Assembly: GCA_021777215.1 (NCBI GenBank)
Contig: JAJYDS010000001.1
Span: forward strand, 41,622 to 105,621
Direction: 5' to 3'
From: a bacterium
GTDB lineage: Bacteria > Babelota > Babeliae > Babelales > Vermiphilaceae
Length of the DNA stretch: 64,000 nucleotides
Within the stretch, counting starts at the first letter, position 1; each line of letters opens with the position of its first letter. A program made the position numbers and the translations under genes. Positions 10,926 to 42,121 of the stretch are shown piece after piece. A model generated the notes under the pieces. That model made no database searches. It was not told where the DNA came from and saw only the letters and a program-made list of their open reading frames with translations.

Positions 10926-13376
10926 TTAGATTAGTTTTAAAAACTGTGCATCTATTTTTTTGGTGCCGGCTTTGAAAAGTACGGTAATAATTGTTTTGCC
11001 CATTAATTTTGCTTCAACTTCCTGGACGATGCCGGTACCAAATGTTGCGTGCTCTACGGGGCTGTTTTTCTTGAATTGGCACATGCTGCCACCAGTACGC
11101 TCGGTTGTTTTTTCCTGCATAGTTTTAAGGGCTTGTTTTTGTAGGAGTGCAGCTTTTTTGGTACTCGACAATCTGCTTTTTTGTTCGGCGTTGGTTGCCG
11201 GTTTATGCACTTTTTGAGCTGTTGCTTTTAGTGTATGGGAACTGCTAAAGCTTTTTTGTTGACCAATGGGCTTGTTTGCATATGTGTGACTCTCGTTGAA
11301 AGAAGAGAATGAACTTTCTGCTGGTTGCGGCGAGCCAAACGTAAGTACTGGTGAGGGTGTATATGTTTGTGTTCCTGCGCCAAGCCAGTGCGAAAAATAG
11401 CTAACCATTTGTGGTTGCTTCCAATAGGAACAATCTTCCATGGGCAAAAGATTTTTAGGAATTTCTTGCAAAAAGCGAGAGGCTATCTGGTCGGTCATGT
11501 TGCGATAGCCATAGCGATAGCGAGCATGTGAGATTAAGAGTCGTTCTTTTGCTCGGGTGATTCCCACGTAGAAAAGTCGACGTTCTTCTTCGATTTTGTC
11601 TTGCGCATACTCAGCGCGAATGCTTGGCATAAGGCCATCTTCAAGTCCTACGAGTGCTACTAGATCAAATTCCAATCCTTTAGCAGCGTGATAGGTCATA
11701 AGTTTTACCGTCGTTGGATCGTCTTTTTTTTTGTGAATGTTTTCTTGCATAAGAGCAACTTCATCAAGGAGTTTGTCGATTGAGTCAGTTCCATTGATTT
11801 CAAAATGAGCCATGGCATTGAGCAGCTCTTTTATATTTTCATTGCGTTCTTTGGCATTTTCAGCTTCGTAGGTTGTTTTGAGATACCCTAAGTATCCCGT
11901 TCTGAGGAGAATTTTTTCCAAAGCTTGTGCTGGTTTATCAGTGCCTGAAAGTCCATCAAAAATAGTAATAAATTGATCTAATGCGTCGAGTTTTGTCTGC
12001 GGAAGCAATTTTTCTTCGATTACTTTTTTCAGGACATCAATAAAAGTTAAAAAAGGTTCAGCGTGCCAGAGAGCGAAAAAGAGTTCTTCGCTCTTTTCGC
12101 CCAGTCCGCGCTGCGGCGTATTTATTATTCTAAAAAAAGAGGCGTGATCAAATGGATTTACTACCAAGCGTAAATAAGCCAGTAGATCTTTTATTTCCAA
12201 TCGTTCATAAAACTGTACGCCACCGATTATGGTATAGGCGATTGAGTTTTTAAGGAGAGATTCTTCAAGCGCTCGAGATTGAAAGTGGGTGCGATAGAGT
12301 ATCGCAGCGGTTGTCTCTTTTTTTGCGCCCTTGGCTACTTTTATTGCATTAGCAATGACATCTGCTTCTTGATATTCGGATAAGCAAGAAAGTGCGCGAA
12401 TACGGTCAGTTCCTTGTTTTGCTGACCATAGTTTTTTAGGGTTGCGCTGCTCATTGTTTATGATAACCGCATTGGCGGCTTCTAAGATGGGGCGTGCTGA
12501 GCGATAGTTTTGTTCAATTTTTATGGTGATAGTGTTAGGAAAATCTTTTTGTATATTGAGAATGTTGGTTACGGTAGCGCCGCGCCATGAGTAAATTGAT
12601 TGATCTTCATCGCCGACGATACAGATTGACTCTACCCCCATCTGTTTTGCATCTTTTTTAGCCATATGCTTGAGGAGCTCGTGCTGTACAACATTGGTGT
12701 CTTGATACTCATCGACCAAAATATGCTGAATGTGCTCCTGATGCTCTTGTTTAAATTCAGGATAACGAGAAAAGAGGTGCAATGCCTTGAGGAGTAGATC
12801 GTCAAAATCGAGGCAACGGCTTGCTGTTTTTTCTTGTTCATAAGCACCATAGAGCTGGTGAAGCAATGGATTCATTTTGTAGAGTTGATCTACTATTTCT
12901 CCATCAAGTGCATTATTTTTTATGCGAGAAATTTGCCAGGATAATTCTTTGGGAGATACTTCTTTAACCAGACCATGTTGTTTGAGGATGCCCTTGAGGA
13001 GCTTTTGCTGATCATCTTCATCCAGGATTGAAAAAAAAGGCGATTCAAGTAGGGCCGGATTGCTCTTAAGCAGGTGAAGGCAATAAGAATGGAACGTGCC
13101 TATCCATGGCAGGCGTTGTGTTTTATCTAAAAAAGAGCCAACGCGTTCTTGCATTTCTTTGGCAGCTTTATTAGTAAAGGTGAGCGCAACAATCGATTGC
13201 GGTAATACCTGCTCGTTTACGATTAAATTGGTAATACGCGCAGTTATAACACGGGTTTTTCCCGAACCAGCACCAGCAGAAACCAAAAAAGCACCACTTT
13301 TTTGTATAACGGCTTTTTTCTGTTCGGTATTTAAATTTTTTTCGATAAATTCGTTAAACGATTGTGCGTGTGACAT
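10926..13376 (-). CDS. pcrA: ATP-dependent DNA helicase, UvrD/PcrA/Rep family
   Basis: 816 aa. SF1 motifs: AGAGSGKTRVITARI (Walker A), LTFTNKAAKEMQERV, ILVDEYQDTN, NYRS, LMTYHAAKGLEFD, LFYVGITRAKERL. C-terminal Tudor-like tail (VEHATFGTGIVQEVE). Confidence 0.92.
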   Translation of the reverse strand: MSHAQSFNEFIEKNLNTEQKKAVIQKSGAFLVSAGAGSGKTRVITARITNLIVNEQVLPQSIVALTFTNKAAKEMQERVGSFLDKTQRLPWIGTFHSYCLHLLKSNPALLESPFFSILDEDDQQKLLKGILKQHGLVKEVSPKELSWQISRIKNNALDGEIVDQLYKMNPLLHQLYGAYEQEKTASRCLDFDDLLLKALHLFSRYPEFKQEHQEHIQHILVDEYQDTNVVQHELLKHMAKKDAKQMGVESICIVGDEDQSIYSWRGATVTNILNIQKDFPNTITIKIEQNYRSARPILEAANAVIINNEQRNPKKLWSAKQGTDRIRALSCLSEYQEADVIANAIKVAKGAKKETTAAILYRTHFQSRALEESLLKNSIAYTIIGGVQFYERLEIKDLLAYLRLVVNPFDHASFFRIINTPQRGLGEKSEELFFALWHAEPFLTFIDVLKKVIEEKLLPQTKLDALDQFITIFDGLSGTDKPAQALEKILLRTGYLGYLKTTYEAENAKERNENIKELLNAMAHFEINGTDSIDKLLDEVALMQENIHKKKDDPTTVKLMTYHAAKGLEFDLVALVGLEDGLMPSIRAEYAQDKIEEERRLFYVGITRAKERLLISHARYRYGYRNMTDQIASRFLQEIPKNLLPMEDCSYWKQPQMVSYFSHWLGAGTQTYTPSPVLTFGSPQPAESSFSSFNESHTYANKPIGQQKSFSSSHTLKATAQKVHKPATNAEQKSRLSSTKKAALLQKQALKTMQEKTTERTGGSMCQFKKNSPVEHATFGTGIVQEVEAKLMGKTIITVLFKAGTKKIDAQFLKLI

Positions 13377-13468: not shown

Positions 13469-14794
13469 TTATATTTCAGTGGCAAGCGAATACAGAGGAA
13501 TTTTGTCCCTTATTATTTTTTCTAATTCGTGAGATATAGCGGTAAACACTGTTTGCCAATCTCCCATTTTGGGTTGTCTGAATAAACGCATTGTTGGGTA
13601 CCAGGGAGAGTCGTCACGATCAAAAAACCAGCGCCAGTCACAATCATAGGGGAGCATGACCCAAACAGGAATGCCCAGACCTCCTGCCAAATGGGCTAAT
13701 GAGGTATCGGTGGTTATAACTAAGTTGAGGTTTTTCATGATCGCGGCGGTGTCCATAAAGCTTCCATGGTCACTATCGAAATTCGGTCCAAAATCAACGA
13801 TACACTGAGCCTGCGGCGTGGTTTGAAGATCTTGTGTGCCGTTTTTTACCAGGCTATAAAAATGTGTGTGCGGTATGCGGGTCAGATGTTCTACAAAAGG
13901 AGCGAGTGGTATGTTTTTTTGCAAAGTGGCGCGCCAGCAAATACCTACTCTAAACTGAGTGTTGGGGGCCATTTTTTGTTGCCATTCTCGCACGAGTGCT
14001 TGATCAGCGTATAAATAAGGAATGTCTGCAGGGATGGTCTTGACGGTGGTTTTAAAAACAAGAGGGGTGCTCAAGAGAGGAATACGGGTATCAGCTTTTG
14101 GCAGACGGTCACCTTGTTTGATAACTGAGTCAATATACGGGCACAAGGAAAAAAGTTTGACCAGGGAGCCAAACGTTTGCACGTAGACGGTTGCACCCAG
14201 CTGTTTGAGCGCCTTGGCATAGCGTACAAACTGGAGCATGTCTCCTTGTCCCCATTCGGCAATCAGAATAATTTTTTTACTTGCAAGGGAAGAAAGGTTT
14301 AGGCTCGGATATTTGAAGTACTGGTGAAATTCTTGCCAATTATCCAGGCGATATTCAAATTCGTTCCATGCGGTCTCAAATTGTCCTAAAGAGAGTAAGG
14401 TTCCCGCCTTTCCCAAGTGTGCATCTTGATGATTATTGTTTAATGCCAAGACGGTATTGTAGGTGGCAAGAGCCTCATGAAGAAGATGGTTGTGCCGTTG
14501 GCAATACGCAAGGTTATACAAGGCTGTTATTGATTCGGGATTTTTACTAATAATGGCTTGAAAGTGTTTTATTGCGTTTTCGTAGTCGCGCTGATGTGCA
14601 AAGATAATACCCAGGTTGTAATGCGCATTCCAATCTTCTTGATTTTTTTCAATGGCTTGCTGATATAAAAAGATTGTTTTTTGGGGAGAGCCTTTTTTTT
14701 CTTGCGCGCTTGTCAGGGCGTGATCATTGCCCCTTGAGATAAAAAACAATGCGCTAGTCGCAAGTAGTGTGGTTATTAAAAAGTTTTTTTTCAT
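13469..14794 (-). CDS. exported TPR repeat + GT9 (heptosyltransferase)-like glycosyltransferase, 1 module
   Basis: 441 aa. Hydrophobic N-terminus MKKNFLITTLLATSALFFIS. TPR-like repeats (AHYNLGIIFAHQRDYENAIKHFQAI, ALYNLAYC). GT-B N-lobe ILIAEWGQGDMLQFVRYAKALKQLGATVYVQT..LCPYIDSVI. C-lobe FMDTAAIMKNLNLVITTDTSLAHLAGGLGIPVWVMLP..DWRW..PWYPTMRLFRQPKMGDW. Confidence 0.8.
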   Translation of the reverse strand: MKKNFLITTLLATSALFFISRGNDHALTSAQEKKGSPQKTIFLYQQAIEKNQEDWNAHYNLGIIFAHQRDYENAIKHFQAIISKNPESITALYNLAYCQRHNHLLHEALATYNTVLALNNNHQDAHLGKAGTLLSLGQFETAWNEFEYRLDNWQEFHQYFKYPSLNLSSLASKKIILIAEWGQGDMLQFVRYAKALKQLGATVYVQTFGSLVKLFSLCPYIDSVIKQGDRLPKADTRIPLLSTPLVFKTTVKTIPADIPYLYADQALVREWQQKMAPNTQFRVGICWRATLQKNIPLAPFVEHLTRIPHTHFYSLVKNGTQDLQTTPQAQCIVDFGPNFDSDHGSFMDTAAIMKNLNLVITTDTSLAHLAGGLGIPVWVMLPYDCDWRWFFDRDDSPWYPTMRLFRQPKMGDWQTVFTAISHELEKIIRDKIPLYSLATEI

Positions 14795-14854
14795 CTAATT
14801 TTCCCGTGATAATTGTTTGTATACTGTGGTTGCCTATTTATTTTTTGCCTGAGT

Positions 14855-16165
14855 TTAGAGCTGCTTTTTGAGCGTGAGTAGTTCCTGTAGTGCTTTTTTA
14901 ACATTGGCAACCACGGTGTTCCAGTCACCTGCTTTTGGTTGTCTAAAAAGGTGCATGGTTGGATACCAGGGACAATCGTCTCGTTGGGTAAGCCAGCGCC
15001 AATCGGCAACATAGGGTAGCAGCGTCCAAACGGGCACACCAAGGCCGCCAGCCAAGTGGGCGATTGAGGTGTCGATAGTTATAATAAGGTCAAGATTTTT
15101 CATAATCGCAGCGGTATCCATAAAGGCGCCATGCGCTTCATCTAATTCTTGATTGAAAGTGTTTACTATAAATCCTTCAGGGAGCGATTTTAGTTCATCA
15201 AGGCCGCTTGTTTTTTGGAGTGAAAAGAATTGTATCTGTTTAATTGCTGCTAATGGAGCTAAAAGAGAGAGCGGGATTGATTTATCGTGAACGAGTTTTT
15301 TTGCATACGTGTTTTCATAGAGATTTCCGTGCCAACATAAGCCAATTTTAAACGTGTTAGGGTTTTCCAATCGTGAGTGCCAAAGTTTTATCAAGTTTTG
15401 GTCAGCGTATAGATAGGGAATTTTATTTGGTATGGTGTTAAGATCTGTATCAAAGGCCCAGGGTAGACTCATAATAACGGTTGATAGGTCTTGTGGAGGT
15501 GTAGGTGATTGTTCATCAACGACCCGGTCTATATACGGACAGAGAGAGAAAATTTTAATCAGCTGTTTTTTTATTTTTACTATCACTTTCGCGCCGTTAT
15601 TTTTCACCTTTGCTGCATAGCGGATAAATTGGAACATGTCGCCAAAGCCGAGTTCCCCCTTGAGAAGTACGGTCTTTCCGGTGAGGTCGGGGTTGGTACG
15701 TATGGAGTTGGTAAACGTCAGTGAATCAGGGCGTTGTTCTGCCCAGCGGCATTCAAAATCGGGCCATGCTTTTCTGAGTTCACCAAGGGCAAGCAGTGCG
15801 TGCGATCGTCCTTGCAGGCCATCACGATTATTTGGATATTTGCTGAGGAATGTATCATACATCTGTAGGGCTTTGGTGAAGTTGCCCATTGATCGTAATA
15901 CAAAGCCGCTGGCGTAGAGCGCGGCAGAGTAATCAGGATTTTGAGAAAGAACGATGCTATATTCTTCCAGCGCTTTTTCAAATTCATCGCACTCGGCCCA
16001 GAGATTTCCAAGGAGAAAGTGCGCTTGCGTATTATGAGGGTGTATGCCAAGTTCTTTTTGGCACGCGACGATTGATTTGGCTATTTTTTTATCTATTTGG
16101 TCGTTGTTTTGTTGAGGGTATAGTGTAAGTGTACTTATCAAAAGAAAACTACAGATTTTTTTCAT
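14855..16165 (-). CDS. exported TPR + GT9-like glycosyltransferase, 1 module
   Basis: 436 aa. N-terminus MKKICSFLLISTLTLY. TPRs (AHFLLGNLWAECDEFEKALEEY). LLKGELGFGDMFQFIRYAAKVKNNGAKVIV..LCPYIDRVV. FMDTAAIMKNLDLIITIDTSIAHLAGGLGVPVWTLLP..DWRW..PWYPTMHLFRQPKAGDW. Confidence 0.8.
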   Translation of the reverse strand: MKKICSFLLISTLTLYPQQNNDQIDKKIAKSIVACQKELGIHPHNTQAHFLLGNLWAECDEFEKALEEYSIVLSQNPDYSAALYASGFVLRSMGNFTKALQMYDTFLSKYPNNRDGLQGRSHALLALGELRKAWPDFECRWAEQRPDSLTFTNSIRTNPDLTGKTVLLKGELGFGDMFQFIRYAAKVKNNGAKVIVKIKKQLIKIFSLCPYIDRVVDEQSPTPPQDLSTVIMSLPWAFDTDLNTIPNKIPYLYADQNLIKLWHSRLENPNTFKIGLCWHGNLYENTYAKKLVHDKSIPLSLLAPLAAIKQIQFFSLQKTSGLDELKSLPEGFIVNTFNQELDEAHGAFMDTAAIMKNLDLIITIDTSIAHLAGGLGVPVWTLLPYVADWRWLTQRDDCPWYPTMHLFRQPKAGDWNTVVANVKKALQELLTLKKQL

Positions 16166-16174
16166 GGGAGGCTT

Positions 16175-17944
16175 TCAGGCCTTTTGGGTGAGCGCGGTGA
16201 TTTCTTTAATAACGCCGTTTAGAACAGGTTGCCAATCGCCTGCTTTTGGTTGTCTAAACAGGCGCATGGTTGGATACCACGGGTAGTCAGGGCGATCGAT
16301 AAGCCAGCGGTAATCAGCGTGGACGGGGAGTAATGTCCAGACCGGCACTCCAAGAGCTCCTGCTACGTGTGCGACGCAACAGTCGAGAGTGATAACCAAA
16401 TCAAGATTTTTCATGAGTGCGGCAAGTTCTATGAGCCCTTCGTTATCTTCATTAAATCCTTTGCCACAGAGAGTAATTAAGTCGCGACAGGCGAATGCTG
16501 CACTCTCTTGTTCAGTTACTTGTTGGAGACAATAGACTGAAATGCCAGGGATTTTAGCTAGAGGAGCAAAGAGAGAAAAGGGGATACTTGCCAGTTCAGC
16601 CGGATCATATAGTTGTTGCTCATTTTTTTTCCATCGGATGCCTATTTTAAAGTTACTGTCGTGTTTTAGGAGGCTCTGCCAGTGAGTAACTAACTCTTGA
16701 GGGGCAATTAGATAGGGGATTGGGCTAGGGATGGTGTCGATGGTGGTCTGAAAAAGAGCGGGAAGGCTGGTTATGGGGATATAGGCATGATAAGCGGGTG
16801 CGATATTTTCATTAAAACCAACAACCGTATCTATAAAGGGACATGCTTTAAAAAGTGCCTCTAGTTGAGGGGGTGTTTGCATGATAACCGATCCGCCCGC
16901 GTCATGTATGGTTTTTGCATAACGGGCAAGTTGTACCATATCTTCAAGTATCCACTCGGCACCAATAAATATTTTTTTTCCTTTAATGTGGCTTTTATTG
17001 GTAAGTAATCGAGCTCCATGGGGATTGGTCAACTGATTATAGTGCGCCATAAGTTGCCATCCAAGAGGGTAGTGTCCGAGTGTCAGATAGGTTTTTGCTA
17101 GCCCTAGTGTGGCGTGTGCATGATTGGGACTTTGATTTAAAATGGTTTGAAAAAGTTCTTCTGCTTTAGCGAGATTGCCTCCCTTACGGTGTGCATTGCC
17201 CATAGCATAAAAAAGGGATGCTTTTTTTTGTGCGGGAACATAAGGTTGCAGTTGTTCATACAGAGCGATTGCTGAGTCGGTTCTTCCTAGTTTAACAAGC
17301 AGCGCTGCTTTTCCCAGTAATGCTTGAGGATGATTTTTGTACAGCGTAAGAAGCTGATCATAGGTGGCGATTGCTTCTTCTATATGAGAGATTTTTTCTA
17401 AAGTCTGAGCTTTGTTAAGATAGGCTTGGCTGTTTTTGGGATTTACCGTCAGAACGTTATTGTAGCTTTCAATTGCCTTGAGAAAGTTTTCCTGTCGCAC
17501 AAAAAGGTTTCCCAGCTGCAGATAGCCTTGTTCCGTGGGATTTAGTCCCAGTATTTGTTGTTGATAATAGATGCTTTTTTCTATGTTGCCAAGTGCGGCG
17601 TATGCAGTATAGAGTTGGTTAATTACTTCGGTAGTTGTGTTGTTATGTGCGGCATACTGCTCAAGATAAGAAATAGCCTGTGGGTATTCATTACTTTTTA
17701 AAAATGTGGTGCCTAATTGATAGAGTGCTTCTTGATTGTGAGGGTTCTGTTCAATTGTCTTTTTATAATACGCGAGCGCCTCTATTTGTTTGTTGTTAGC
17801 TGTTAGTGCTTGGGCCAACTGCAAGTATGCCTGTTCTAATCCAATAGTGGGTGCGGGAGTATTGCCGCTATACGTGAGATGAACCATGCACATACTGAGT
17901 GTGTATGCGACCTTGCTTGGCAAGAATTTTTTTGCATACCTCAC
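16175..17944 (-). CDS. TPR-rich + GT9-like glycosyltransferase, 1 module (long TPR arm)
   Basis: 589 aa. About 7-8 TPR-like repeats, then IFIGAEWILEDMVQLARYAKTIHDAGGSVIMQT..ACPFIDTVV and LIELAALMKNLDLVITLDCCVAHVAGALGVPVWTLLP..DYRW..PWYPTMRLFRQPKAGDW. The N-terminus is only moderately hydrophobic (VAYTLSMCMVHLTY). Confidence 0.78.
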   Translation of the reverse strand: MRYAKKFLPSKVAYTLSMCMVHLTYSGNTPAPTIGLEQAYLQLAQALTANNKQIEALAYYKKTIEQNPHNQEALYQLGTTFLKSNEYPQAISYLEQYAAHNNTTTEVINQLYTAYAALGNIEKSIYYQQQILGLNPTEQGYLQLGNLFVRQENFLKAIESYNNVLTVNPKNSQAYLNKAQTLEKISHIEEAIATYDQLLTLYKNHPQALLGKAALLVKLGRTDSAIALYEQLQPYVPAQKKASLFYAMGNAHRKGGNLAKAEELFQTILNQSPNHAHATLGLAKTYLTLGHYPLGWQLMAHYNQLTNPHGARLLTNKSHIKGKKIFIGAEWILEDMVQLARYAKTIHDAGGSVIMQTPPQLEALFKACPFIDTVVGFNENIAPAYHAYIPITSLPALFQTTIDTIPSPIPYLIAPQELVTHWQSLLKHDSNFKIGIRWKKNEQQLYDPAELASIPFSLFAPLAKIPGISVYCLQQVTEQESAAFACRDLITLCGKGFNEDNEGLIELAALMKNLDLVITLDCCVAHVAGALGVPVWTLLPVHADYRWLIDRPDYPWYPTMRLFRQPKAGDWQPVLNGVIKEITALTQKA

Positions 17945-17991
17945 GATATATTCCTTTTTTTAAACAGATATTTGTTTGCGCTCACAGTTTT

Positions 17992-20616
17992 TTAACGAGC
18001 AGTTTCTTTTTTTAAAATATGTACCGGTAATTCATCAATAATACGGTGTATAACAGAAACCCAATCACCTTCTTTTTGCTGCCTAAATAATCGCATAGTT
18101 GGATACCAAGGAGAGTCTTCTCTGTTTATAAACCAACGCCAGTCGGCAGTTTTGCAAATCAAAGTCCATACAGGTACCCCAAGAGCACCAGCTAAGTGTG
18201 CAATTGAAGTATCAACAGAAATAACTAAATCGAGGCTTTTCATGACAGCAGCAGTGTCCATGAAGCGACCGTTTTTTTTATCAAACAGGGTGTCAAATGT
18301 ATAAAAATTGGGGCATTGATTAAGAGGCTTGATGTCTGCATTTCTTTGTAAATTGTAAAAGCTGATGAAGGGAAATTCATCTATGAGTTTTTTTATTGTA
18401 TTGATAGGTATTGAGCGTGGGCATGGGATTGGTTTCCCTGTTTTTTCATCTTCATACATTTGAGCCTTCCAAGAGATGCCGATTTTAAATTGAGTATCGC
18501 TTGCTACTATGGCGGCCCATTTTTTTACCAGAGCAGGGTCAGGATGGATGTAGGGAATGTTAGCCGGGATCGTTTCGAGGGATACATCTAAGTCTTCACG
18601 CATTTTTGCGATATTTGTGTAGTAATCAAATGGGGGAACAGGTTCTTGTTGTGAGACGATTTTATCAAAAAATGGGCAGCGTGAAAGAAGTGGTATAATT
18701 TCTGGTCGGGCATAAAAGACAATGTATGCTCCACGTTTTTTGAGTGTTTCTGCATGCCGTATAAATTGGAATAGGTCACCATAGCCACCAGTATCTTTAA
18801 CCATAATGGTTTTCCCTTGAGGGGTGCGGTCATAGAGCCGGTGTTCATTATCAATGGAGGGGTCTTGGCGATCTAGAGAGCGAAATTGTGCCCAACCTTC
18901 TTGTAGGTGCCCCAATGTTAGGTACGTATAACCCAATTTTTCGCGAGCTCTGACATATGAAGGAGCAATCGCAATGGCTTTTTTAAATTCTTGAACAGCG
19001 ATATCTAATTTGCCCAGATCTTTGGCCATGAAGCCGACATTGAAGGGATAATCGGGGTTGTTGGGGAAAGCCTGGGCTGCTTTTTGAAAAAACTGTAAGG
19101 CTGATTCTTTATCGTTGAGGGTATAGTACGTGAGGGCTATTATTGGCAATAGTTCTTTTTTATCGGGCATACACTCAAGAGCTTGGATGTAACAGCGCAA
19201 GCTCTTGGTATAGTTGAGCTCCTTATTGTGTTGCGCGGCTTGTAAAATAAAATTTTTATATTTTTCGGTCAGAGATTGTTTTTTTTGTTCAAGTAATGGG
19301 GTTAATGCCGTAGATATTTGGGCTACGACAGAATCCCAGTCGCCTTTTTTTGGCTGCCTGAATAATCGCATACTTGGGTACCAGGGCGAGTCTTCGCGAG
19401 CGGTAAACCAACGCCAATCAGCTGCATGGCGGAGCATCGTCCAAACTGGTATGCCAAGGGCGCCGGCCAAGTGAGCTATAGAGGTGTCGACGGTGATAAC
19501 CAGATCCATATTTTTCATGAGGGCTGCGGTATCCATAAATCTACCGTGTTCAGCATCCATTTCAGAAGTAAAGTCGATAATCTTATTAAAAAAAGGTTCA
19601 TGAGTATACTCGCTCAGTCCGTGTACTTTTTGAAGGCTGTAGCACGCAATTCCCGGTATTTCGAGTATGTGGGCGAGCTTTTTTAATGGTATTGATCGAT
19701 CGCTTGGGCGACTTTTTGTTTCATAGTAATCAACAACGCGATTTGATTCCCAGAATATGCCTATTTTGAATGTTTGGTTAGAGCCTATTTTTTTATGCCA
19801 GAATTCTTCGAGCTTTTTATCTGCATAGAGATAAGCGTTTGTAAATGCCTGCTTGTTGGTGTTTGCTAGCACTTTGAGTGCCATGTTACAGAGACTAGGT
19901 TTGTATATTTGTGTGTGGGGGGAAAGGGGTTGAGTTGTTGGTATGATCGTGTCAATGTAGGGACAAAGGGAGAGCAAGGGGGATAGATCTGAAGATGTCT
20001 GGACAATAACGGTTGCCCCTAGTTCCTTTAAAATTTTGGCGTAACGAAGCATTTGAATTTTATCCCCAATGCCCAATCCATCTTCTACTAAGGGAATAGT
20101 GTATGTGGCGTCAATAAGTGATTGTCCATACCATGGTATATCTTGTTGTGGCCATCGGGAAATCACGGTGCTTATCTCTTGACGTCGCAAATAATATTCC
20201 ATCAGCTTTGTGTTGAGGTAGGCGTGATTGGGGTCTATTTTGATTGCTTTTTCAAGGGAGTCTTTTTCCTCATCAAGCATTCCTGCGGCACGATAGACGA
20301 GTGCTAGGGTTTCATGAACTATGAATGAGTTGGGGCAGACTTGTGCGAGTTTTGTGAGGTAGAAAATTGATTTATCTCTGTTGCCAGCGTAGTGCTCTAT
20401 CCTCCCTAAATGAAATAAAATGGTAGGGTCGCACGGCTTTATCTGGAGAGCTTTTTCGTAATTCTCCAATGCTTGCGGTATTTTTTTTTGATTTTCGTAT
20501 GCTTCTGCTTTGGTACAATATTCTTGTGCCGTTTGAGGTTCTTTGTTTTCTGAACCAGGAAGTAGGGAAGCGGTGAGTGTTGTGAGTAGAAAAAGACTGT
20601 ATTTTATTTTTTTCAT
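17992..20616 (-). CDS. exported protein with two tandem TPR + GT9-like modules
   Basis: I prefer the Met at 20616 (MKKIKYSLFLLTTLTASLL). Its ATG overlaps the TGA of the upstream gene as ATGA (20613-20616). The first module ends in PWYPSMRLFRQPKKGDW (DNA near 19335-19386). The second ends in PWYPTMRLFRQQKEGDW (near 18061-18111). Each has its own GDxxQxxRYA N-lobe and DTSIAHLAGALG C-lobe. Confidence 0.8.
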   Translation of the reverse strand: MKKIKYSLFLLTTLTASLLPGSENKEPQTAQEYCTKAEAYENQKKIPQALENYEKALQIKPCDPTILFHLGRIEHYAGNRDKSIFYLTKLAQVCPNSFIVHETLALVYRAAGMLDEEKDSLEKAIKIDPNHAYLNTKLMEYYLRRQEISTVISRWPQQDIPWYGQSLIDATYTIPLVEDGLGIGDKIQMLRYAKILKELGATVIVQTSSDLSPLLSLCPYIDTIIPTTQPLSPHTQIYKPSLCNMALKVLANTNKQAFTNAYLYADKKLEEFWHKKIGSNQTFKIGIFWESNRVVDYYETKSRPSDRSIPLKKLAHILEIPGIACYSLQKVHGLSEYTHEPFFNKIIDFTSEMDAEHGRFMDTAALMKNMDLVITVDTSIAHLAGALGIPVWTMLRHAADWRWFTAREDSPWYPSMRLFRQPKKGDWDSVVAQISTALTPLLEQKKQSLTEKYKNFILQAAQHNKELNYTKSLRCYIQALECMPDKKELLPIIALTYYTLNDKESALQFFQKAAQAFPNNPDYPFNVGFMAKDLGKLDIAVQEFKKAIAIAPSYVRAREKLGYTYLTLGHLQEGWAQFRSLDRQDPSIDNEHRLYDRTPQGKTIMVKDTGGYGDLFQFIRHAETLKKRGAYIVFYARPEIIPLLSRCPFFDKIVSQQEPVPPFDYYTNIAKMREDLDVSLETIPANIPYIHPDPALVKKWAAIVASDTQFKIGISWKAQMYEDEKTGKPIPCPRSIPINTIKKLIDEFPFISFYNLQRNADIKPLNQCPNFYTFDTLFDKKNGRFMDTAAVMKSLDLVISVDTSIAHLAGALGVPVWTLICKTADWRWFINREDSPWYPTMRLFRQQKEGDWVSVIHRIIDELPVHILKKETAR

Positions 20617-29879: not shown

Positions 29880-31154
29880 TTATGGCAGTTGATCGTACAA
29901 AGGTTTTTGTATATTTTCCAATTCCAGGATCACTTGATGTACAACGCTGTCCCAGTCAAATGGTTGTGGCTGTTTAAAGATGCGCATGGTTGGATACCAA
30001 GGAGAATCTGTGCGATGTGCAATCCAACGCCAATCTGTTGCATAGGGAAGAATCAACCAGACGGGTTTTCCCAGTGCTCCTGCCAAATGTGCCAATGCTG
30101 AATCGATAGTGATTATAAGGTCAAGTTGGGTGATAACGGCCGCACTATCCATAAAGCTGCCGTTTTTTTCATCAAAGTCAGTGTCAAAACAGGTAAGCTC
30201 AAAATAGGCGGGAATATTTTTGAGTTGCTCAAGACCTTCTTTTTTTTGCAGACTATAAAAACTGATACCCTCGATGAGTCCCAATGGGTACAATTGAGCC
30301 AACGGAATACCTCGATGAGCGACAGGAAGTCGTGATGAATCATTAAAGACATCTGCTTGCCAGCATATGCCCACTTTGAAGTTTTTATCATGCGAGAGCT
30401 TTCGTTGCCACGAATCTACGAGTGCAGGGTCCGGGAAAATATAGGGAATGGTGTGGGGAATTGTTTGCTCCGTTGAATTAAAAACAGCGGGTAAGCTCAT
30501 ATAGCTTGCTTTTGCTTGATAGTTGGTAATAAGCTTGGGATCGTCAATGAGGGTGTCGATATAGGGGCAGCGCGAAAGAAGTTGCACTAGGGGTTTTTGT
30601 ATCAAGCACGTGACGTGCGCACCTTGATCATGCATTAGTTGAGCGTAGCGAATAAAATGGAGAGTGTCGCCTAATCCACCTTCCGGGATGAGCAGAATTT
30701 TTTTTCCACTCAGGTCGTTCTGTTGAGCAAGATACCAAAAATTTTCCGAAGCTTTATGTTCGGTACGAATATGATGTTGATGTATTTTCCAGCCATTTTC
30801 AAAGTCACCTTTAAATAAATAGGCATGTCCCAGCGCAAAGCGCGCTGCCTCATAGGTGGGGTCGAGTTGGAGCACCTTTTGGTACAGTGCTATTGCTTCA
30901 TCAACGCGGCCGGCCATCTTGAGTACATACCCACTATTGTATATTGATTGTACTTGTTGCGGGTATAATTGGGTAATTTGAGTATACGCGGCAAGTGCTT
31001 GTTCGACTTGTCCCAGCCGCGTTGCCTCGATGCCTTTGCTAAATAATGTTTGAATATCAGTTGATTTTACCGGCGTTTCATCTGTCGGATTCAAAAAAAA
31101 GATAGAGAATGAGCCCGTTAAAAAAAGAGCGCGAAAAAAGGTGGTTGTTCGCAT
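29880..31154 (-). CDS. exported TPR + GT9-like glycosyltransferase, 1 module
   Basis: 424 aa. N-terminus MRTTTFFRALFLTGSFSIFFL. TPRs. LLIPEGGLGDTLHFIRYAQLMHDQGAHVTC..RCPYIDTLI. FMDSAAVITQLDLIITIDSALAHLAGALGKPVWLILP..DWRW..PWYPTMRIFKQPQPFDW. Confidence 0.8.
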   Translation of the reverse strand: MRTTTFFRALFLTGSFSIFFLNPTDETPVKSTDIQTLFSKGIEATRLGQVEQALAAYTQITQLYPQQVQSIYNSGYVLKMAGRVDEAIALYQKVLQLDPTYEAARFALGHAYLFKGDFENGWKIHQHHIRTEHKASENFWYLAQQNDLSGKKILLIPEGGLGDTLHFIRYAQLMHDQGAHVTCLIQKPLVQLLSRCPYIDTLIDDPKLITNYQAKASYMSLPAVFNSTEQTIPHTIPYIFPDPALVDSWQRKLSHDKNFKVGICWQADVFNDSSRLPVAHRGIPLAQLYPLGLIEGISFYSLQKKEGLEQLKNIPAYFELTCFDTDFDEKNGSFMDSAAVITQLDLIITIDSALAHLAGALGKPVWLILPYATDWRWIAHRTDSPWYPTMRIFKQPQPFDWDSVVHQVILELENIQKPLYDQLP

Positions 31155-31181
31155 AGAAAACCCTCACAAGGTTGTTGTTTT

Positions 31182-33620
31182 TTAACTATGCGTGAGAGGT
31201 GAAATTCCTAAATCGGCAATTTTTTTCTTTAAATATTTTTTTAGTTCTTGGAGAGAAGAGCTTTTTTTATTTAAAAGAAAACTTTGTTTGTTAGCCAGGA
31301 GTAACTGATCCTTGAGAGCGTCAAGCGAAGGAGCTTCTTTTTGATAGGTAGCATAGCGTTTTTGGAGCTGTTCATACTCGGTATTTTCTTGGGATGATAG
31401 AGCGCCATTTTCAGCTTGTACGGAAAGCATAGTCAATTTATCAACAAATTCTGCGATCGGATCACAGTACTGAAATACTGCCGGGTCGTTAGTAACTGTT
31501 TGGGCTACTGCTATGTTTGTTGGACATGTCGTTTTGATGGTGCGAGTTTGTTCAGGTGTTCTGTTTTTCGGAGCAGTAGGAGCTGCGTGCACATCAAAAG
31601 GGGTTGGTATAAACGGTTTAAGCGTTAGGCGTGTTTTTACTGGTTCTTGCGCAAGAGCTGACTGTTGCGTAGCAAGAGCAATTGTTGCGCAGGAGGCGAC
31701 AAGCTCTTTTGTTGCTATTTTTGCAGAACTATTTTCGCGTGTAACCGTTTCAACGCAAACTTGTTGTGTATTTCGTTGCGTTACTAATTTTTCTAATTCG
31801 CAGGCGACTTCTTGAATAACCGAATCCCAATCACCAGGAGTCGGCTGTCTGAACAGGCGCATATTTTTAGGAAACCATGGCGTATCAAGACGTTTGAGCA
31901 TCCAGCGCCAATCAGCGGGTTCTGGCAGGAGGCACCATACAGGAATTCCCAAGCCGCCGGCAATGTGCGCCATAGAGGTATCGATAGTGATCATAAGATC
32001 GATATTTTTCATAATAGCTGCCGTATCCATAAACGGACCGTTTTCTTCGTCAAGTCCTGGGATGGTGCGAATGATAAGTTTGTCGCCCAATTCTTCAAGC
32101 TGATCCGTGCCGGATATTTTTTGCAAGCTATACAGAGAAATTCCTTTTACTTTACCAAGGGGAAGCAATGTTTTGACATGCATAGATTTGCCCGCGACAG
32201 CTTGACGTAAAAATTGGTTACGGTAAAGAGGGTTGCCTTGCCAACAAAGACCAATTTTGAAGTTTTTGTCTTCAGCCAGTTTATTTTGCCAGGATTCGAC
32301 TAAATCAGGTCGTGCAAAAAGATAAGGAATTTCTGTTGGTATCGTAGTAACTTCTGTTTTATAAGCCAGAGGAAGACTCATGAGCGCGATATGGGCATCA
32401 AAATGAGGCTTTGTTTCTTGTGGAGTAAAGACGGCGTCAAGGTAGGGACAGAGAGAAAGTAATTTTTTAAGAGGTTTTTGTACTTCTGCTATAACGTGCC
32501 CGCCTTGGTCTTTTATGCATTTGGCGTAGCGGATGAATTGGAAGGTATCTCCCAGTCCTTGTTCGGCATATACTAAAATTGTTTTACCTTCTGGGTTTGA
32601 GCCATCCCATACCGGTTGCGGATATTTTTTAGGGGATTCATTATATGCTTGCCAACGCCATTCATATTCGGGCCATCCGCGAGCGAAGTCGCCAAGGCTT
32701 AAATAGGCCAGCGAGCGACTGAAGCGTGCTTGCGGATATTCGGGGCTCATTGTTAAAACTTTGTCATAGACCTCGATTGATTCTTGCACATAACCCATTT
32801 TTTTGAGCGTGTAGCCAAAGTTATAGAGAACCTCATGCGTGTTTGGTCGAATTTCAAGAATTTTTTTATAACATTCAAGGGCCTCTGGCCAGCGGTTTAT
32901 CATGTTGTAGGTATTGCCTAATTCCAAAAGACAGGAGAGGTTTTGTGGATTTTGTTCGCAGGCGCTGCGGTAATAATTAATTGCCTCTTCAAAGCGGTTC
33001 TGGTCTTTCAGTAGCCCAGCGGCAGCATTTAAAAGATCGAGTGAGTGAGTTGTGGTCTGTAAACCTCGTTCAAAAAAGGAGAGTGCTTCTTCTTGTTTTT
33101 TTTGATTTTTAAGTAAATTGCCCACGCGAAGATAGGCATTTGTGTAGGCAGGGTTGAGGCGTATTGCTTCTTTAAAATGGCTTATTGCCTCATCTTTTTG
33201 ATCTTTTTTTTCAAGGCATATGCCCAAATTATAGTGGAGTGACGGGGAATCGGTTTTTAAGTTCAGTGATTTTTTGTATTGTTCGATAGCCTGCTCAATA
33301 TTATTTTGGTTATACAGGAAATTGGCGTAGGAGAAAGAGGTGTCTAAATCGTCAGGAAGAAATTCAAGGGCTTTTTTATAAAATTGCACTGCTTTTGGTG
33401 CATTGTTTTCTTTTTCATAATCGCGGGCGAGTTGCAGGTATTCGGTGCCGATATTTTTTTTAAGAGTGTCACGCGTTGCGTTGTTTTCTGGCTGTGTGCT
33501 GTGCGGGGGGAGTGCTACTTGATCAGGGGTTACGAATACTTGTGCTGCGTTGCCGTAGATGCTGCATAAAAGAGGAACTATCAAAAGAGTGCGTATGGTA
33601 GGGTTTATTTGAAGCTTCAT
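31182..33620 (-). CDS. exported TPR-rich + GT9-like glycosyltransferase with a ~210-aa C-terminal extension (degenerate DUF6165-like end)
   Basis: 812 aa. N-terminus MKLQINPTIRTLLIVPLLCSIYGNA. About 8 TPRs. LVYAEQGLGDTFQFIRYAKCIKDQGGHVIA..LCPYLDAVF. FMDTAAIMKNIDLMITIDTSMAHIAGGLGIPVWCLLP..DWRW..PWFPKNMRLFRQPTPGDW. A Thr/Ala/Pro-rich linker follows, then AEFVDKLTMLSVQ..LKDQLLLANKQ, which resembles the start of the 24280-25290 repeats. Confidence 0.8.
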   Translation of the reverse strand: MKLQINPTIRTLLIVPLLCSIYGNAAQVFVTPDQVALPPHSTQPENNATRDTLKKNIGTEYLQLARDYEKENNAPKAVQFYKKALEFLPDDLDTSFSYANFLYNQNNIEQAIEQYKKSLNLKTDSPSLHYNLGICLEKKDQKDEAISHFKEAIRLNPAYTNAYLRVGNLLKNQKKQEEALSFFERGLQTTTHSLDLLNAAAGLLKDQNRFEEAINYYRSACEQNPQNLSCLLELGNTYNMINRWPEALECYKKILEIRPNTHEVLYNFGYTLKKMGYVQESIEVYDKVLTMSPEYPQARFSRSLAYLSLGDFARGWPEYEWRWQAYNESPKKYPQPVWDGSNPEGKTILVYAEQGLGDTFQFIRYAKCIKDQGGHVIAEVQKPLKKLLSLCPYLDAVFTPQETKPHFDAHIALMSLPLAYKTEVTTIPTEIPYLFARPDLVESWQNKLAEDKNFKIGLCWQGNPLYRNQFLRQAVAGKSMHVKTLLPLGKVKGISLYSLQKISGTDQLEELGDKLIIRTIPGLDEENGPFMDTAAIMKNIDLMITIDTSMAHIAGGLGIPVWCLLPEPADWRWMLKRLDTPWFPKNMRLFRQPTPGDWDSVIQEVACELEKLVTQRNTQQVCVETVTRENSSAKIATKELVASCATIALATQQSALAQEPVKTRLTLKPFIPTPFDVHAAPTAPKNRTPEQTRTIKTTCPTNIAVAQTVTNDPAVFQYCDPIAEFVDKLTMLSVQAENGALSSQENTEYEQLQKRYATYQKEAPSLDALKDQLLLANKQSFLLNKKSSSLQELKKYLKKKIADLGISPLTHS

Positions 33621-33829: not shown

Positions 33830-34474
33830 CTAGTAAAGATCAACAGCATGCAAGAGTGACTCACTAGGGATATTGGGAGTGCTTGATGCAATTGCGGTAA
33901 GCTTTGTACAAGCGGATGCGCAGTAGGGCGCACAACTGTCGCGGACTATGGTGCCGGCTCCTTGTGAAAGAAGGCATAGTGCGCTGTAGGCGCGAAATGT
34001 TTTAATGTTTGCAGGTGTTTTTATAGATAATCGTCGTGCTATTTCCACAAACATGAGATTATACAGGCCATAGCCAACATCAACCGCAATTTTGTAGCCG
34101 GATATTTTTTGTTTAGGCGTGCTAGTTGAGCTCGGTTTTAGATTTTTAGTCACGCTGCCCATTGTTTGTGCTGTCAGAGCACCTAGAAAATACGTACGCA
34201 TCAATCCTATTTGTGCGGGTGTTTTATGGGGCAGGAGGAGCCCTGCGCCGGTTGCCGCCAAGGAAGCGACCCCAAAGATAGTATTGCCTACCGTGTTGGA
34301 GCTATAGGTAAGATTTCTTGGGTTAATGGATCCATTGTTTTCCGCGGCGTTTAGCTGTGCGGGTTGTTGCATGGCAAGGCTTACTGTTGCTTGGCTAAAG
34401 GCTAAAAAAGCAGCGATATTCGCAAGCAAAATCCGGACAGGTGAGTGATTGGCTTTGGCTAATGAAATAATCAT
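33830..34474 (-). CDS. hypothetical hydrophobic or exported protein with an internal duplication
   Basis: 214 aa. N-terminal hydrophobic stretch (ILLANIAAFLAFSQATVSLA). Two related segments: KTPAQIGLMRTYFLGALTAQTMGSV and KTPANIKTFRAYSALCLLSQGAGTI. No recognisable family. Confidence 0.5.
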   Translation of the reverse strand: MIISLAKANHSPVRILLANIAAFLAFSQATVSLAMQQPAQLNAAENNGSINPRNLTYSSNTVGNTIFGVASLAATGAGLLLPHKTPAQIGLMRTYFLGALTAQTMGSVTKNLKPSSTSTPKQKISGYKIAVDVGYGLYNLMFVEIARRLSIKTPANIKTFRAYSALCLLSQGAGTIVRDSCAPYCASACTKLTAIASSTPNIPSESLLHAVDLY

Positions 34475-40817: not shown

Positions 40818-42121
40818 TGAATATCTCCATTCTGACTGTTTTTAATGATTTATATGACTCGTTTATGCGTACCAGCCTTGTTGGTCGTGCGCAAGAAAAG
40901 GGGCTTGTGTCGATCGAGGCAACGCCTTTTTTCTCGTATGTATCAGCTAAGGAGCGTATAGATGCGCCGACATTTGGTCCTGGAGCAGGCATGCTTATTC
41001 GACCAGATGTTATACAAAAGGCTATTCAGGACAAAGAAGAAAAGCACGGTCCTGCGTACAAAGTTTTTTTCTCGCCTCAAGGAGAAGTTCTTGATCAACG
41101 CCTTTTGCAAAAAATAGCTGATAAGGTGCACAAAACGGGGCATCTTATGGTGGTAGCATCTCGTTATGAAGGCATGGATGTTCGCGTTGAAGAGCGATAT
41201 GCCGACATTGTTGTTTCGTTAGGTGATTTTGTTGTTATGGGTGGCGATTTACCAGCCATGCTCTTTCTTGAAGGGCTTTTAAGGCTTGTTCCGGGCGTGG
41301 TGGGTAAGCAGGCATCTGTTGACCATGAGTCATTCTCGGGTCCTTTCGTTGATTATCCTGCTTATACGGAGCCATTGACCTGGGAAGGTAAAACAGTTCC
41401 GGAGATTGTTCGCTCGGGAAATCATGGGGCTATTGAGCAGTGGCGTATGGAGAAAGCAGCCCAAAAAACAGTTTTAGAGCACTTTGGTTGGCTAAGGTCT
41501 TATCCTGGGTTGACCAGCGAAGAAAAGACGCTTGCTTCTCGCTATATTCCTGCCCATTATGTGGCTCTCATGCATGACCAGGTCTATATCGGTGATGAAG
41601 GTGCCCAGGGAACCACATCGGTTACCTCTATTGATATTCATGACGGTGCCCGTTCTTGTAGGACCTATGGTATTAAAAATTATTTTCTGGTAACGCCCCT
41701 GCTGGATCAGCAAAGAATAGTCAAAACACTGCTTGATTTTTGGGTCTCTGATACTGGTATTGCTTACAATAAGAGCCGTTTTGAAGCGGTGAGCCGCGTC
41801 GAGCTGCGTCCAGGGCTTCAGGATGTTATTGCTTCTATCAAGGAGAAAGAGGGGACTGAGCCCGTTATTGTTGCTACATCAGCGCGGTCTGTTGCTCATC
41901 CTGGCCATATCAGTTGGTATGATCAGGCGGTGGTGTGGCGTACAAAGAAGCCGGTATTGTTTTTATTTGGTACGGGCAAAGGGCTGATAGACGAGGTAGT
42001 GCAGCGGGCAGACTTTTTGCTGGACCCTATTGAAGGGTTCAGTGATTTCAATCATCTTTCAGTAAGATCGGCCTTGGGTATTGCCCTTGATCGGTGGTTG
42101 GGCATAGTGCAAAAAAGCTAG
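40814..42121 (+). CDS. trmD: tRNA (guanine37-N1)-methyltransferase TrmD fused to a second SPOUT-like RNA methyltransferase domain
   Basis: 435 aa versus about 250 for a normal TrmD. The N-terminal part is TrmD: ISILTVFNDLY, GPGAGML, VVASRYEGMDVRVEE, SLGDFVVMGGDLPAMLFLEGLLRLVPGVVG, VPEIVRSGNHGAIEQWR. The C-terminal ~190 aa carry TSIDIHDGARSCRTYGIKNYFLVTPL, VATSAR, LFLFGTGKGL, DFNHLSVRSALGIALDRW. I recognise this from memory as the Methyltrn_RNA_4-type family. The ATG overlaps the KH-gene stop (ATGA). Confidence 0.85.
   Translation: MMNISILTVFNDLYDSFMRTSLVGRAQEKGLVSIEATPFFSYVSAKERIDAPTFGPGAGMLIRPDVIQKAIQDKEEKHGPAYKVFFSPQGEVLDQRLLQKIADKVHKTGHLMVVASRYEGMDVRVEERYADIVVSLGDFVVMGGDLPAMLFLEGLLRLVPGVVGKQASVDHESFSGPFVDYPAYTEPLTWEGKTVPEIVRSGNHGAIEQWRMEKAAQKTVLEHFGWLRSYPGLTSEEKTLASRYIPAHYVALMHDQVYIGDEGAQGTTSVTSIDIHDGARSCRTYGIKNYFLVTPLLDQQRIVKTLLDFWVSDTGIAYNKSRFEAVSRVELRPGLQDVIASIKEKEGTEPVIVATSARSVAHPGHISWYDQAVVWRTKKPVLFLFGTGKGLIDEVVQRADFLLDPIEGFSDFNHLSVRSALGIALDRWLGIVQKS

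Follow-up and report, generated by a model that had tools for sequence, protein, structure and literature searches.

A divergent GT9-fold glycosyltransferase array with a DUF6165 partner in Dependentiae, a candidate exported and TPR-guided system

What might ten adjacent genes, which together repeat one glycosyltransferase-like module 13 times, do in a bacterium of the Dependentiae? The genes lie in a 64-kb stretch of a Vermiphilaceae genome (GenBank assembly GCA_021777215.1, contig JAJYDS010000001.1, forward-strand positions 41,622 to 105,621), which we call the window and in whose own numbering all coordinates are given. Between 13469 and 33620, the open reading frame (ORF) list of the window contains ten consecutive ORFs, all on the minus strand, and a 336-aa gene at 24280-25290 (minus strand) splits the run. 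An earlier model-made reading of the same letters, hereafter the original prediction, had described these ORFs as glycosyltransferases (GTs) resembling family GT9 that are preceded by tetratricopeptide repeats (TPRs). The explanation that we tentatively favour is that the array encodes an exported glycosyltransferase system of GT9 fold, catalytically intact and guided by its TPRs, which depends on a second protein, DUF6165. The genes are listed here with their signal peptide (SP) predictions and, where available, the ratio of nonsynonymous to synonymous substitution rates (dN/dS) with orthologues in L081 (ERZ27237454 k141_68343), a close relative.

13469-14794, minus strand: gene 1, 441 aa, SP-like N-terminus, about three TPRs, GT9-like module at 13487-14386; dN/dS 0.13 with the L081 orthologue
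14855-16165, minus strand: gene 2, 436 aa, predicted SP, TPR arm, GT9-like module at 14858-15784; module of the L081 orthologue 80% identical, dN/dS 0.12
16175-17944, minus strand: gene 3, 589 aa, weak SP, about seven TPRs, GT9-like module with degenerate motifs at 16178-17086; dN/dS 0.16
17992-20679, minus strand: gene 4, 895 aa from its first start codon, two TPR plus GT modules at 19267-20208 and 17995-18921
20613-24182, minus strand: gene 5, 1189 aa, predicted SP, three TPR plus GT modules at 22926-23858, 21768-22661 and 20616-21527
24280-25290, minus strand: DUF6165 partner, 336 aa, predicted SP, tandem DUF6165 domains at 24766-25158 and 24301-24705 (PF19662, E 2.2e-19)
25483-27219, minus strand: gene 6, 578 aa, predicted SP, about six to seven TPRs, GT module at 25486-26424
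27216-28697, minus strand: gene 7, 493 aa, predicted SP, about four TPRs, GT module at 27231-28154
28688-29875, minus strand: gene 8, 395 aa, hydrophobic N-terminal anchor or SP, about one helical repeat, GT module at 28721-29644
29880-31154, minus strand: gene 9, 424 aa, predicted SP, two to three TPRs, GT module at 29883-30812
31182-33620, minus strand: gene 10, 812 aa, predicted SP, about seven TPRs, GT module at 31758-32693, degenerate DUF6165-like tail at about 31266-31460

We counted modules in three ways: by motif, by a MAFFT alignment of the extracted domains, and by searching all six frames with a hidden Markov model (HMM) derived from this alignment. The three independent counts agree with the 13 TPR plus two-lobe modules of the original prediction, distributed as 1, 1, 1, 2, 3, 1, 1, 1, 1 and 1 over genes 1 to 10, and the HMM found no further module in any of the six frames of the window. 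The N-lobe and C-lobe motifs that had been quoted are real, and the alignment of the 13 modules has 28 invariant columns. A total of about 6,250 codons, said to include the 336-aa gene, holds for the ten GT genes alone (6,252); with that gene the sum is 6,588. The TPR arms ahead of the modules do vary in length as had been claimed, from about one to seven repeats depending on the gene, and Pfam detected many TPR families in nine of the ten array proteins. Gene 8 is the exception, having no TPR match and matching the GT9 family PF01075 at 16 bits only. The module of gene 3 has ILED, LIELAA and LDCC in place of the consensus motifs and retains the Asp, Asp and His residues discussed below. Pairwise identity among the window modules is 31-59%, with gene 7 the closest paralogue of gene 1 (59%), and we conclude that the paralogues are old or fast-diverging rather than recent copies. 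A recent 13-fold duplication was rejected for this reason and because L081, which covers half of the array, has orthologues about 85% identical for most of the modules in that half.

The assignment to GT9 depends on structure prediction, because the Pfam match is short and close to its cut-off. PF01075 (Glyco_transf_9), the family named in the original prediction, is indeed seen, although its match is confined to the C-lobe motif (about 30-40 residues, profile positions ~174-217 of 247) and single modules reach 16-24 bits against a cut-off of 22: genes 3 and 9 score 23.8 and 23.5 bits, and genes 2, 6, 7 and 8 score 16.4-21.3. There was no listed match for genes 1 and 10, and the multi-module proteins reach 48-52 bits by summing. 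When a profile of the 13 modules was searched against PDB sequences, the sole match was the Veillonella GT9 structure 3tov at E 0.39. NCBIfam returned for the array proteins generic TPR equivalogs far under their cut-offs, plus sub-threshold heptosyltransferase matches. The AlphaFold2 model of the gene 1 module, for which the 13-sequence alignment was the input, consists of two alpha/beta lobes (pLDDT 86, pTM 0.88). In a Foldseek search of the PDB with this model, 3tov ranked first (E 6e-10, TM 0.62), and WaaF (1psw) and WaaC (2h1h, 2gt1 and 6dfe) were also recovered; the top GT9 matches (3tov, 1psw, 2h1h and 6dfe) span E 6e-10 to 1e-5 and TM 0.50-0.62. The protein heptosyltransferase TibC (4rap) came after WaaF and WaaC at E ~3e-4, and generic GT-B enzymes ranked lower. 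The model of this module thus bears out the predicted two-lobe GT-B fold of the C-terminal domain, with GT9 enzymes as its nearest relatives.

The modules also retain candidate residues of a GT9-type active site. Alignment to E. coli WaaC by hhalign paired ITxDTSxAHLAGxLGxPVW with VSVDTGLSHLTAALDRPNI, and its core ITxDTSxAHLAG with VSVDTGLSHLTAA, in agreement with the GT9-type D(S/T)...H segment that had been proposed. The module D(T/S)xxxH is aligned to the segment that we take to be D261...H266 of WaaC. Rather than being uniformly absent, the candidate nucleotide-sugar residues are almost universal: in an alignment of 167 modules from Dependentiae, Planctomycetota and Alphaproteobacteria, the Asp of the N-lobe GxGD motif is present in 166, the C-lobe Asp in all 167 and the His in 165. 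In the model, the GxGD Asp, a candidate counterpart of WaaC D13, lies between strand E38-42 and helix H47-53. Between the window and L081, orthologue pairs have dN/dS values of 0.11-0.18 in TPR arms and GT domains alike, with 0.11-0.13 for the GT part and 0.13 for the DUF6165 gene. We conclude that the GT domains, the TPR arms and DUF6165 are all under purifying selection. The retained key residues together with the low dN/dS indicate that the modules are intact, constrained GT9-fold domains, and their own motifs DWRW and PWYPxMRLFRQ set them apart as a strongly divergent branch of that fold.

The original prediction had treated the gene at 24280-25290 as a duplicated-domain gene that interrupts the run. 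The duplication stands, in the form of tandem DUF6165 domains (69.9 bits to PF19662 against a cut-off of 27, two domains), and the gene is a conserved partner of the family rather than a mere interruption. DUF6165 has more than 8,000 homologues, which are mostly stand-alone proteins of 131-133 aa. Across phyla, 38 sequences share 37 invariant columns, most of them polar (D16, K24, E76, D77, R80, N103, D104, R106, K110 and R111 are examples), and the domain is much better conserved than the GT domain. AlphaFold2 models it as a four-helix bundle (pLDDT 89). Against solved structures, a sequence search gave only coiled-coil noise and a fold search a best E of 0.4, and with no significant structural relative there is no function to transfer. 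With an HMM of the two window DUF6165 domains, we detected DUF6165 in about 50 of the 73 genome loci to which the GT module had led, either as a small neighbour gene or as a C-terminal fusion to a TPR-GT protein (for example L018, L011, L012 and Singulisphaera L024). The tail of gene 10 is a weak match to the same HMM (E 1.5e-4), and a GT gene with a weak DUF6165 tail also follows hflX in L004, L005 and L007 and is second after hflX in L020.

The pairing extends beyond Dependentiae and Planctomycetota. In a Pseudomonadota metagenome-assembled genome (MAG), a TPR plus GT9 gene stands directly before DUF6165. Five alphaproteobacterial plasmids carry the pair. In Azospirillum (WP_247882191) and Mesorhizobium, DUF6165 is fused to a GT of the same family as the window modules (HMM E 1e-54 to 1e-80); in Paroceanicella such a GT is its neighbour, and in Paracoccus yeei the neighbouring GT lacks TPRs. 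The 240-kb Synechococcus phage S-SRM01 (L089, NC_070963.1 225280-234124) encodes a TPR-GT9-like protein, gp338, and a DUF6165 protein, gp348, about 7 kb apart; gp338 has a Foldseek TM of 0.76 to the window module and gp348 is 46% identical to a bacterial DUF6165. Judging from domain content and gene order, we conclude that DUF6165 is a conserved partner of the TPR-GT family across phyla and in a phage. An exception to the pairing is the Rhodobacterales MAG L077 (JAGREA010000054.1), in which a stand-alone DUF6165 gene adjoins a cluster of hopanoid genes (MlaC-like, two squalene/phytoene-synthase genes, GT2, amine oxidase and squalene-hopene cyclase) with no GT9-like gene within 6 kb.

All 11 array proteins start, as judged by eye, with a few basic residues and then 12-18 hydrophobic ones. 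To score such N-termini, we called an ORF SP-like if a basic residue was followed by an 11-residue uncharged window with a mean Kyte-Doolittle value of at least 1.9. Under this rule, seven of the ten GT ORFs in the array qualify. In the Dependentiae loci, 58 of 78 TPR-GT ORFs (74%) were SP-like, compared with 2 of 61 in Planctomycetota loci (Fisher p 3e-19) and with 152 of 322 other ORFs in the same Dependentiae loci (47%, p 1.5e-5). The high background agrees with the SP proportion of 44% reported for Chromulinavorax (PMC6561590). Stand-alone DUF6165 proteins followed the same division, with an SP-like N-terminal extension of 20-50 residues in 17 of 17 from Dependentiae and 0 of 8 from Planctomycetota. 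The alphaproteobacterial and phage versions have no SP-like N-termini. That both partners bear these N-termini only in Dependentiae suggests that both gained export-type signals there. The N-termini carry Lys or Arg, and acidic or neutral residues follow the hydrophobic stretch, a charge distribution that predicts an N-in/C-out topology. From these features we infer that the array GTs and DUF6165 carry Sec-type export signals. Many presumed secreted effectors of Dependentiae rely on Sec signals (PMC6561590; PMC4378268), and Dependentiae have a core type II secretion system (T2SS); Babeliales are reported to lack most genes for lipopolysaccharide (LPS) (PMC4776705).

We compared gene order by clustering neighbour ORFs across these GT-bearing loci. 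At least 20 species representatives of Dependentiae have hflX followed by TPR-GT genes with DUF6165 and then by pcrA, and two GT genes are usual; further genes upstream of hflX are common to these loci. In 20 loci the hflX orthologue directly precedes the first TPR-GT gene, and a pcrA orthologue flanks 17. The exact order GT, GT, DUF6165 occurs in six genomes, others have 3-6 modules, L020 has at least eight, and the window has 13 with a duplicated DUF6165. The locus is therefore common in related genomes, one of the outcomes that the original prediction had named as telling against it if the array were an LPS locus, but the Dependentiae locus contains no flippase, ABC exporter, sugar-nucleotide or LPS genes. 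In the window, the neighbouring genes are as follows.

10926-13376, minus strand: pcrA/uvrD-type helicase, the downstream boundary (Pfam UvrD-helicase 9.5e-80, UvrD_C 2.2e-66)
33830-34474, minus strand: orphan ORF between gene 10 and hflX, 214 aa
34678-35508, plus strand: second orphan ORF between gene 10 and hflX, 276 aa
35678-36859, minus strand: hflX GTPase, the upstream boundary (Pfam GTP-bdg_N, GTP-bdg_M and MMR_HSR1)

Pfam thus supports the placement of the array between pcrA and hflX, with the addition that two orphan ORFs precede hflX; in most other genomes, hflX lies directly beside the first TPR-GT gene, unlike in the window. Both orphan proteins begin with SP-like N-termini, and neither has a Pfam or PADLOC match that passes the threshold. 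Genes 10 and 9 are positional orthologues of the first and second common genes after hflX. Gene 10 is 59% identical to the L019 gene, and gene 9 is 55% identical to the second gene of L035, which is its best match outside the genus. The placement in Dependentiae is based on named orthologues (78% identity to HGW-Dependentiae-1) and on gene order shared with named Dependentiae MAGs. In L081, whose modules are about 85% identical to those of the window, one-to-one orthologues were found for the modules of genes 1, 2 and 3, the first module of gene 4, and the first and third modules of gene 5. The second module of gene 4 and the middle module of gene 5 are missing, the first and third modules of gene 5 are joined in an 899-aa protein, and an extra 494-aa single-module gene is without close counterpart in the window. 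These differences show that whole modules are gained, lost and fused on short time-scales. We conclude that the array is an in-place expansion of the hflX-pcrA locus from about two to 13 modules.

Within the array, successive genes have stop/start overlaps of 4, 4 and 10 nt at 20613-20616, 27216-27219 and 28688-28697. The first is between the stop of gene 5 and the start of gene 4 in database gene calls, which begin the protein at MKKIKYSLF near 20616 (874 aa), and the second between the stop of gene 7 and the start of gene 6. The other spacings are gaps of 4-60 nt, and larger gaps of 97 and 192 nt lie around the DUF6165 gene. The overlapping codons suggest translational coupling, and the spacing is compatible with one to three operons. 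A scan of the array for consensus promoters and terminators was uninformative, with sites no more frequent than in shuffled sequence, so that tight spacing is the basis for the operon structure. An anti-phage defence system was rejected, since PADLOC gave only weak generic TPR matches for gene 10 and nothing for gene 1, the DUF6165 protein or the two orphan ORFs. GC skew on the plus strand is positive (0.09-0.26) in all 2-kb bins of the window, 1-64000; a ribosomal-protein operon (~54-64 kb) is on the plus strand, and the array, pcrA and hflX are on the opposite strand. In other Dependentiae genomes (L033, L050, L016, L008, L005, L044 and L048), SP-bearing ankyrin-repeat genes stand amid the TPR-GT and DUF6165 genes between hflX and pcrA, and this region has the appearance of a hot spot for exported repeat proteins.

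How might such a system work? In the explanation that we favour, the modules would actively transfer sugar from a nucleotide donor. By comparison with GT9, that donor may be ADP- or NDP-heptose, a proposal supported by one genomic context, the ADP-heptose genes beside the DUF6165/GT9 pair of a Sulfitobacter plasmid: there, a GT4 plus GT9 fusion is followed by DUF6165 and then by rfaD, a HAD phosphatase gene and rfaE2 (ADP-heptose synthesis), with sulfotransferase and ABC-transporter genes near DUF6165. DUF6165 would be a shared subunit or cofactor, as one or two copies accompany many GT modules and the two are fused in many lineages. Because enzymes and helper protein alike bear export-type signals, the system probably acts outside the bacterial cytoplasm; all of it would be exported by Sec and would act in the periplasm, on the cell surface, or in the host after secretion. 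The differing TPR arms would choose different macromolecular acceptors or successive steps. It is plausible, by analogy, that the acceptors are proteins or protein-linked glycans rather than lipids or the LPS core, given the TPR arms, the absence of LPS and polysaccharide export genes from the locus, and the reported poverty of Babeliales in LPS genes. Protein targeting by the array GTs would likewise be an argument from analogy. As a lead only, a homogeneous oligo-heptose decorates the S-layer protein of the planctomycete Kuenenia (bioRxiv 10.1101/2020.12.03.409086).

Several points weigh against this explanation. GT-B enzymes normally use cytoplasmic nucleotide sugars, and none is known from a periplasm. 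Sequence similarity to GT9 is marginal, as seen in the PDB profile search and the partial Pfam matches. The SP calls come from our own hydrophobicity rule rather than a trained predictor, and genes 3, 4 and 9 fail that rule, their N-termini being hydrophobic but weaker. Finally, the polysaccharide-type clusters in which the family occurs in Alphaproteobacteria and phage favour glycan over protein acceptors there.

Comparison with characterised enzymes shows which features of the array have precedent. Like the GT9 heptosyltransferases WaaC/HepI and WaaF/HepII, the modules have a two-lobe GT-B fold (best structural matches 2h1h, 1psw and 3tov), a 'GD' Asp after the first N-lobe strand as a candidate counterpart, and the C-lobe D(T/S)xxxH segment that aligned to WaaC. 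They differ from GT9 in an identity of only 10-13%, with ~30-40 profile-detectable residues, in their TPR arms, in the family motifs DWRW and PWYPxMRLFRQ, in having several modules per polypeptide, in a DUF6165 partner that looks obligate, in the export signals of the Dependentiae proteins, and in a locus without LPS genes. A role in the LPS inner core, which the original prediction had already doubted, is unlikely in view of the TPR arms, the export-type N-termini, the multi-module forms and the reported lack of most LPS genes in Babeliales. The autotransporter heptosyltransferases TibC and Aah (BAHT, TIGR04414; 4rap and 4rb4) also have a GT9-type fold and act on proteins, and Foldseek gave them a TM of 0.52-0.58. 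Gene 9 has a weak N-lobe match to TIGR04414 (E 7.7e-7), but membership in BAHT was rejected because the best score was 28 bits against a 200-bit cut-off. The invariant and near-invariant columns of the 13 modules contain no Cys and thus no conserved Cys cluster for a TibC-type iron site, and there is no autotransporter gene at the array locus. TibC, unlike the array proteins, has no TPR arm or signal peptide, is cytoplasmic, and acts on an adjacent autotransporter.

OGT and SPY (GT41) and Caulobacter FlmG (PMC7591256) offer a likeness in architecture, in that an N-terminal TPR region offers a macromolecular acceptor to the GT-B domain at the C-terminus. They differ from the array in being cytoplasmic or nucleocytoplasmic and in having no DUF6165 partner. 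Membership in GT41 (OGT, SPY and HMW1C) was rejected, as there was no GT41 Pfam match (Glyco_transf_41) and no OGT in the first 50 Foldseek matches, and the likeness is one of architecture only. Rank 9 in the Foldseek search was 9grx_1, a subunit of 403 residues from the NDH-PSI supercomplex of spinach chloroplasts. Its match was on par with that of WaaC (E 1e-5, TM 0.58), which suggests that a component of a photosynthetic complex has a GT9-like fold. The secreted glycosyltransferases Lgt and SetA of Legionella, TcdA/B of clostridia, and NleB/SseK have GT-A folds and reach their targets through type III or IV secretion or by translocating themselves. The array would resemble them, by analogy, as a case of a host-associated bacterium exporting a sugar transferase able to use host nucleotide sugars; it differs in its GT-B fold and Sec-type signal, and delivery to a host is putative.

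The alternative that survives best is that the array assembles an envelope glycan or polysaccharide, with the hydrophobic N-terminus serving only as an anchor that tethers the modules to the membrane and with catalysis on its cytoplasmic face. For example, heptosyltransferases could add sugars one after another to an oligosaccharide carried by a lipid or a protein, and the TPR arms and DUF6165 could organise a multi-enzyme complex. Genomic context outside Dependentiae speaks for this possibility. Besides the Sulfitobacter plasmid, with its ADP-heptose, sulfotransferase and ABC-transporter genes, the fused Azospirillum protein is encoded among genes for GDP-mannose dehydratase, rfbH, a GT2 and a methyltransferase, and in Paracoccus yeei DUF6165 closes a run of GT genes. 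The S-SRM01 genes belong to a co-directional cluster with a sulfotransferase, an epimerase, a 2OG oxygenase and a GT2-methyltransferase; the cluster adjoins RCC1-repeat and tail-fibre genes and may be a cassette for modification of virion or host glycans. These contexts in Alphaproteobacteria and cyanophage are as compatible with the building of glycans as with the modification of proteins. The family has many proteins with 3-6 modules, as in polymerising enzymes, and the planctomycete S-layer oligo-heptose chains described above would suit the same enzymology. However, the MKK plus hydrophobic N-termini conform to the positive-inside rule with the N-terminus in and the catalytic part outside, and DUF6165, a soluble helical protein, gained the same signal. 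Further, the absence of flippase, ABC exporter and sugar-nucleotide genes from the Dependentiae locus and the reported absence of most LPS genes from Babeliales are not what envelope assembly would lead one to expect. On balance we regard this alternative as unlikely, though it deserves to be taken seriously.

A second proposal, which we consider rather doubtful, is that a cytoplasmic TPR-GT9 plus DUF6165 system was moved wholesale outside the cell by acquisition of Sec signals, was amplified, and now glycosylates host proteins or the bacterium's own surface with host nucleotide sugars. Slightly more doubtful is that the array encodes secreted effectors that travel via Sec and then the T2SS or vesicles into the protist host, where they would glycosylate host proteins with host nucleotide sugars, the 13 modules reflecting diversification toward different host targets. 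The enrichment of SP-like N-termini over the high Dependentiae background speaks for such effectors, as do the SP-bearing ankyrin-repeat genes within the same locus of other genomes, the gain and loss of modules between close relatives, and copy numbers that range from 2 to 13. In addition, published accounts regard the SP-bearing repeat proteins of Dependentiae as being released into the host (PMC6561590; PMC4378268). The locus, however, is ancient, fixed beside core genes and under purifying selection, and free-living Planctomycetota and Alphaproteobacteria have the system in their cytoplasm, which argues that it was not invented for host manipulation. The known secreted glycosyltransferase toxins and effectors have, as noted, the other fold, and eukaryotic hosts are not known to make ADP-heptose. 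It is very improbable that the GT9-like domains are no longer active as transferases and act only as binding or structural units attached to the TPR arms, because the marginal similarity to GT9 profiles, the degenerate motifs of gene 3 and a compartment where nucleotide sugars are not expected, which would all suit such a scaffold, are outweighed by the motif Asp, Asp and His in 165-167 of 167 modules from three phyla (gene 3 included), by the low dN/dS of the GT part, and by the linkage of the family to sugar-nucleotide genes in other phyla.

The family is far larger than the array. At E<=1e-30 it comprises 24,604 representatives of 50%-identity clusters, with proteins of up to 3,100 aa and five or six modules, and NCBI names its members 'tetratricopeptide repeat-containing glycosyltransferase family protein'. 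A family specific to Dependentiae was rejected, since Planctomycetota, Alphaproteobacteria and cyanophages carry it too. Planctomycetota are multi-copy, with eight loci of one Pirellulaceae MAG in the top 80. Some of their loci (among L006, L010, L012, L014, L024, L052, L056, L075 and others) are arrays of 6-8 modules; some of their GT proteins reach 1,000-1,700 aa, without export signals, and their neighbours include TPR plus FkbM-methyltransferase fusions. The literature that we searched (Dependentiae with glycosyltransferase or TPR; DUF6165 or DUF4254; TPR with GT9) did not describe the family or the locus, and it contained no mention of DUF6165 and a single mention of DUF4254, in an unrelated Amycolatopsis genome report. 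The TPR-GT family thus has a database name and no characterisation in the literature searched. Nor did we find reports of the cross-phylum and phage partnership of GT9-like proteins with DUF6165, of the hflX-pcrA locus of Dependentiae, or of export signals on both partners in Dependentiae only.

The link between DUF6165 and the GTs gives two large uncharacterised families (~24,600 clusters and more than 8,000 members) one joint testable hypothesis, and cultured carriers, namely Azospirillum, Paracoccus yeei, Paroceanicella and Singulisphaera, provide genetic entry points. If the array turned out to perform ordinary envelope glycan synthesis, the result would be a useful annotation and no surprise. 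If the system was indeed moved outside the cell, amplified and put to use with host nucleotide sugars, the array would be the first exported glycosylating effector family with a GT-B fold, and DUF6165 would be a new, widespread and obligatory glycosyltransferase cofactor. Dependentiae are obligate protist parasites, in which extracytoplasmic glycosylation by a nucleotide-sugar GT-B enzyme would be unexpected, and the array may represent a new layer of host or envelope manipulation by these bacteria.

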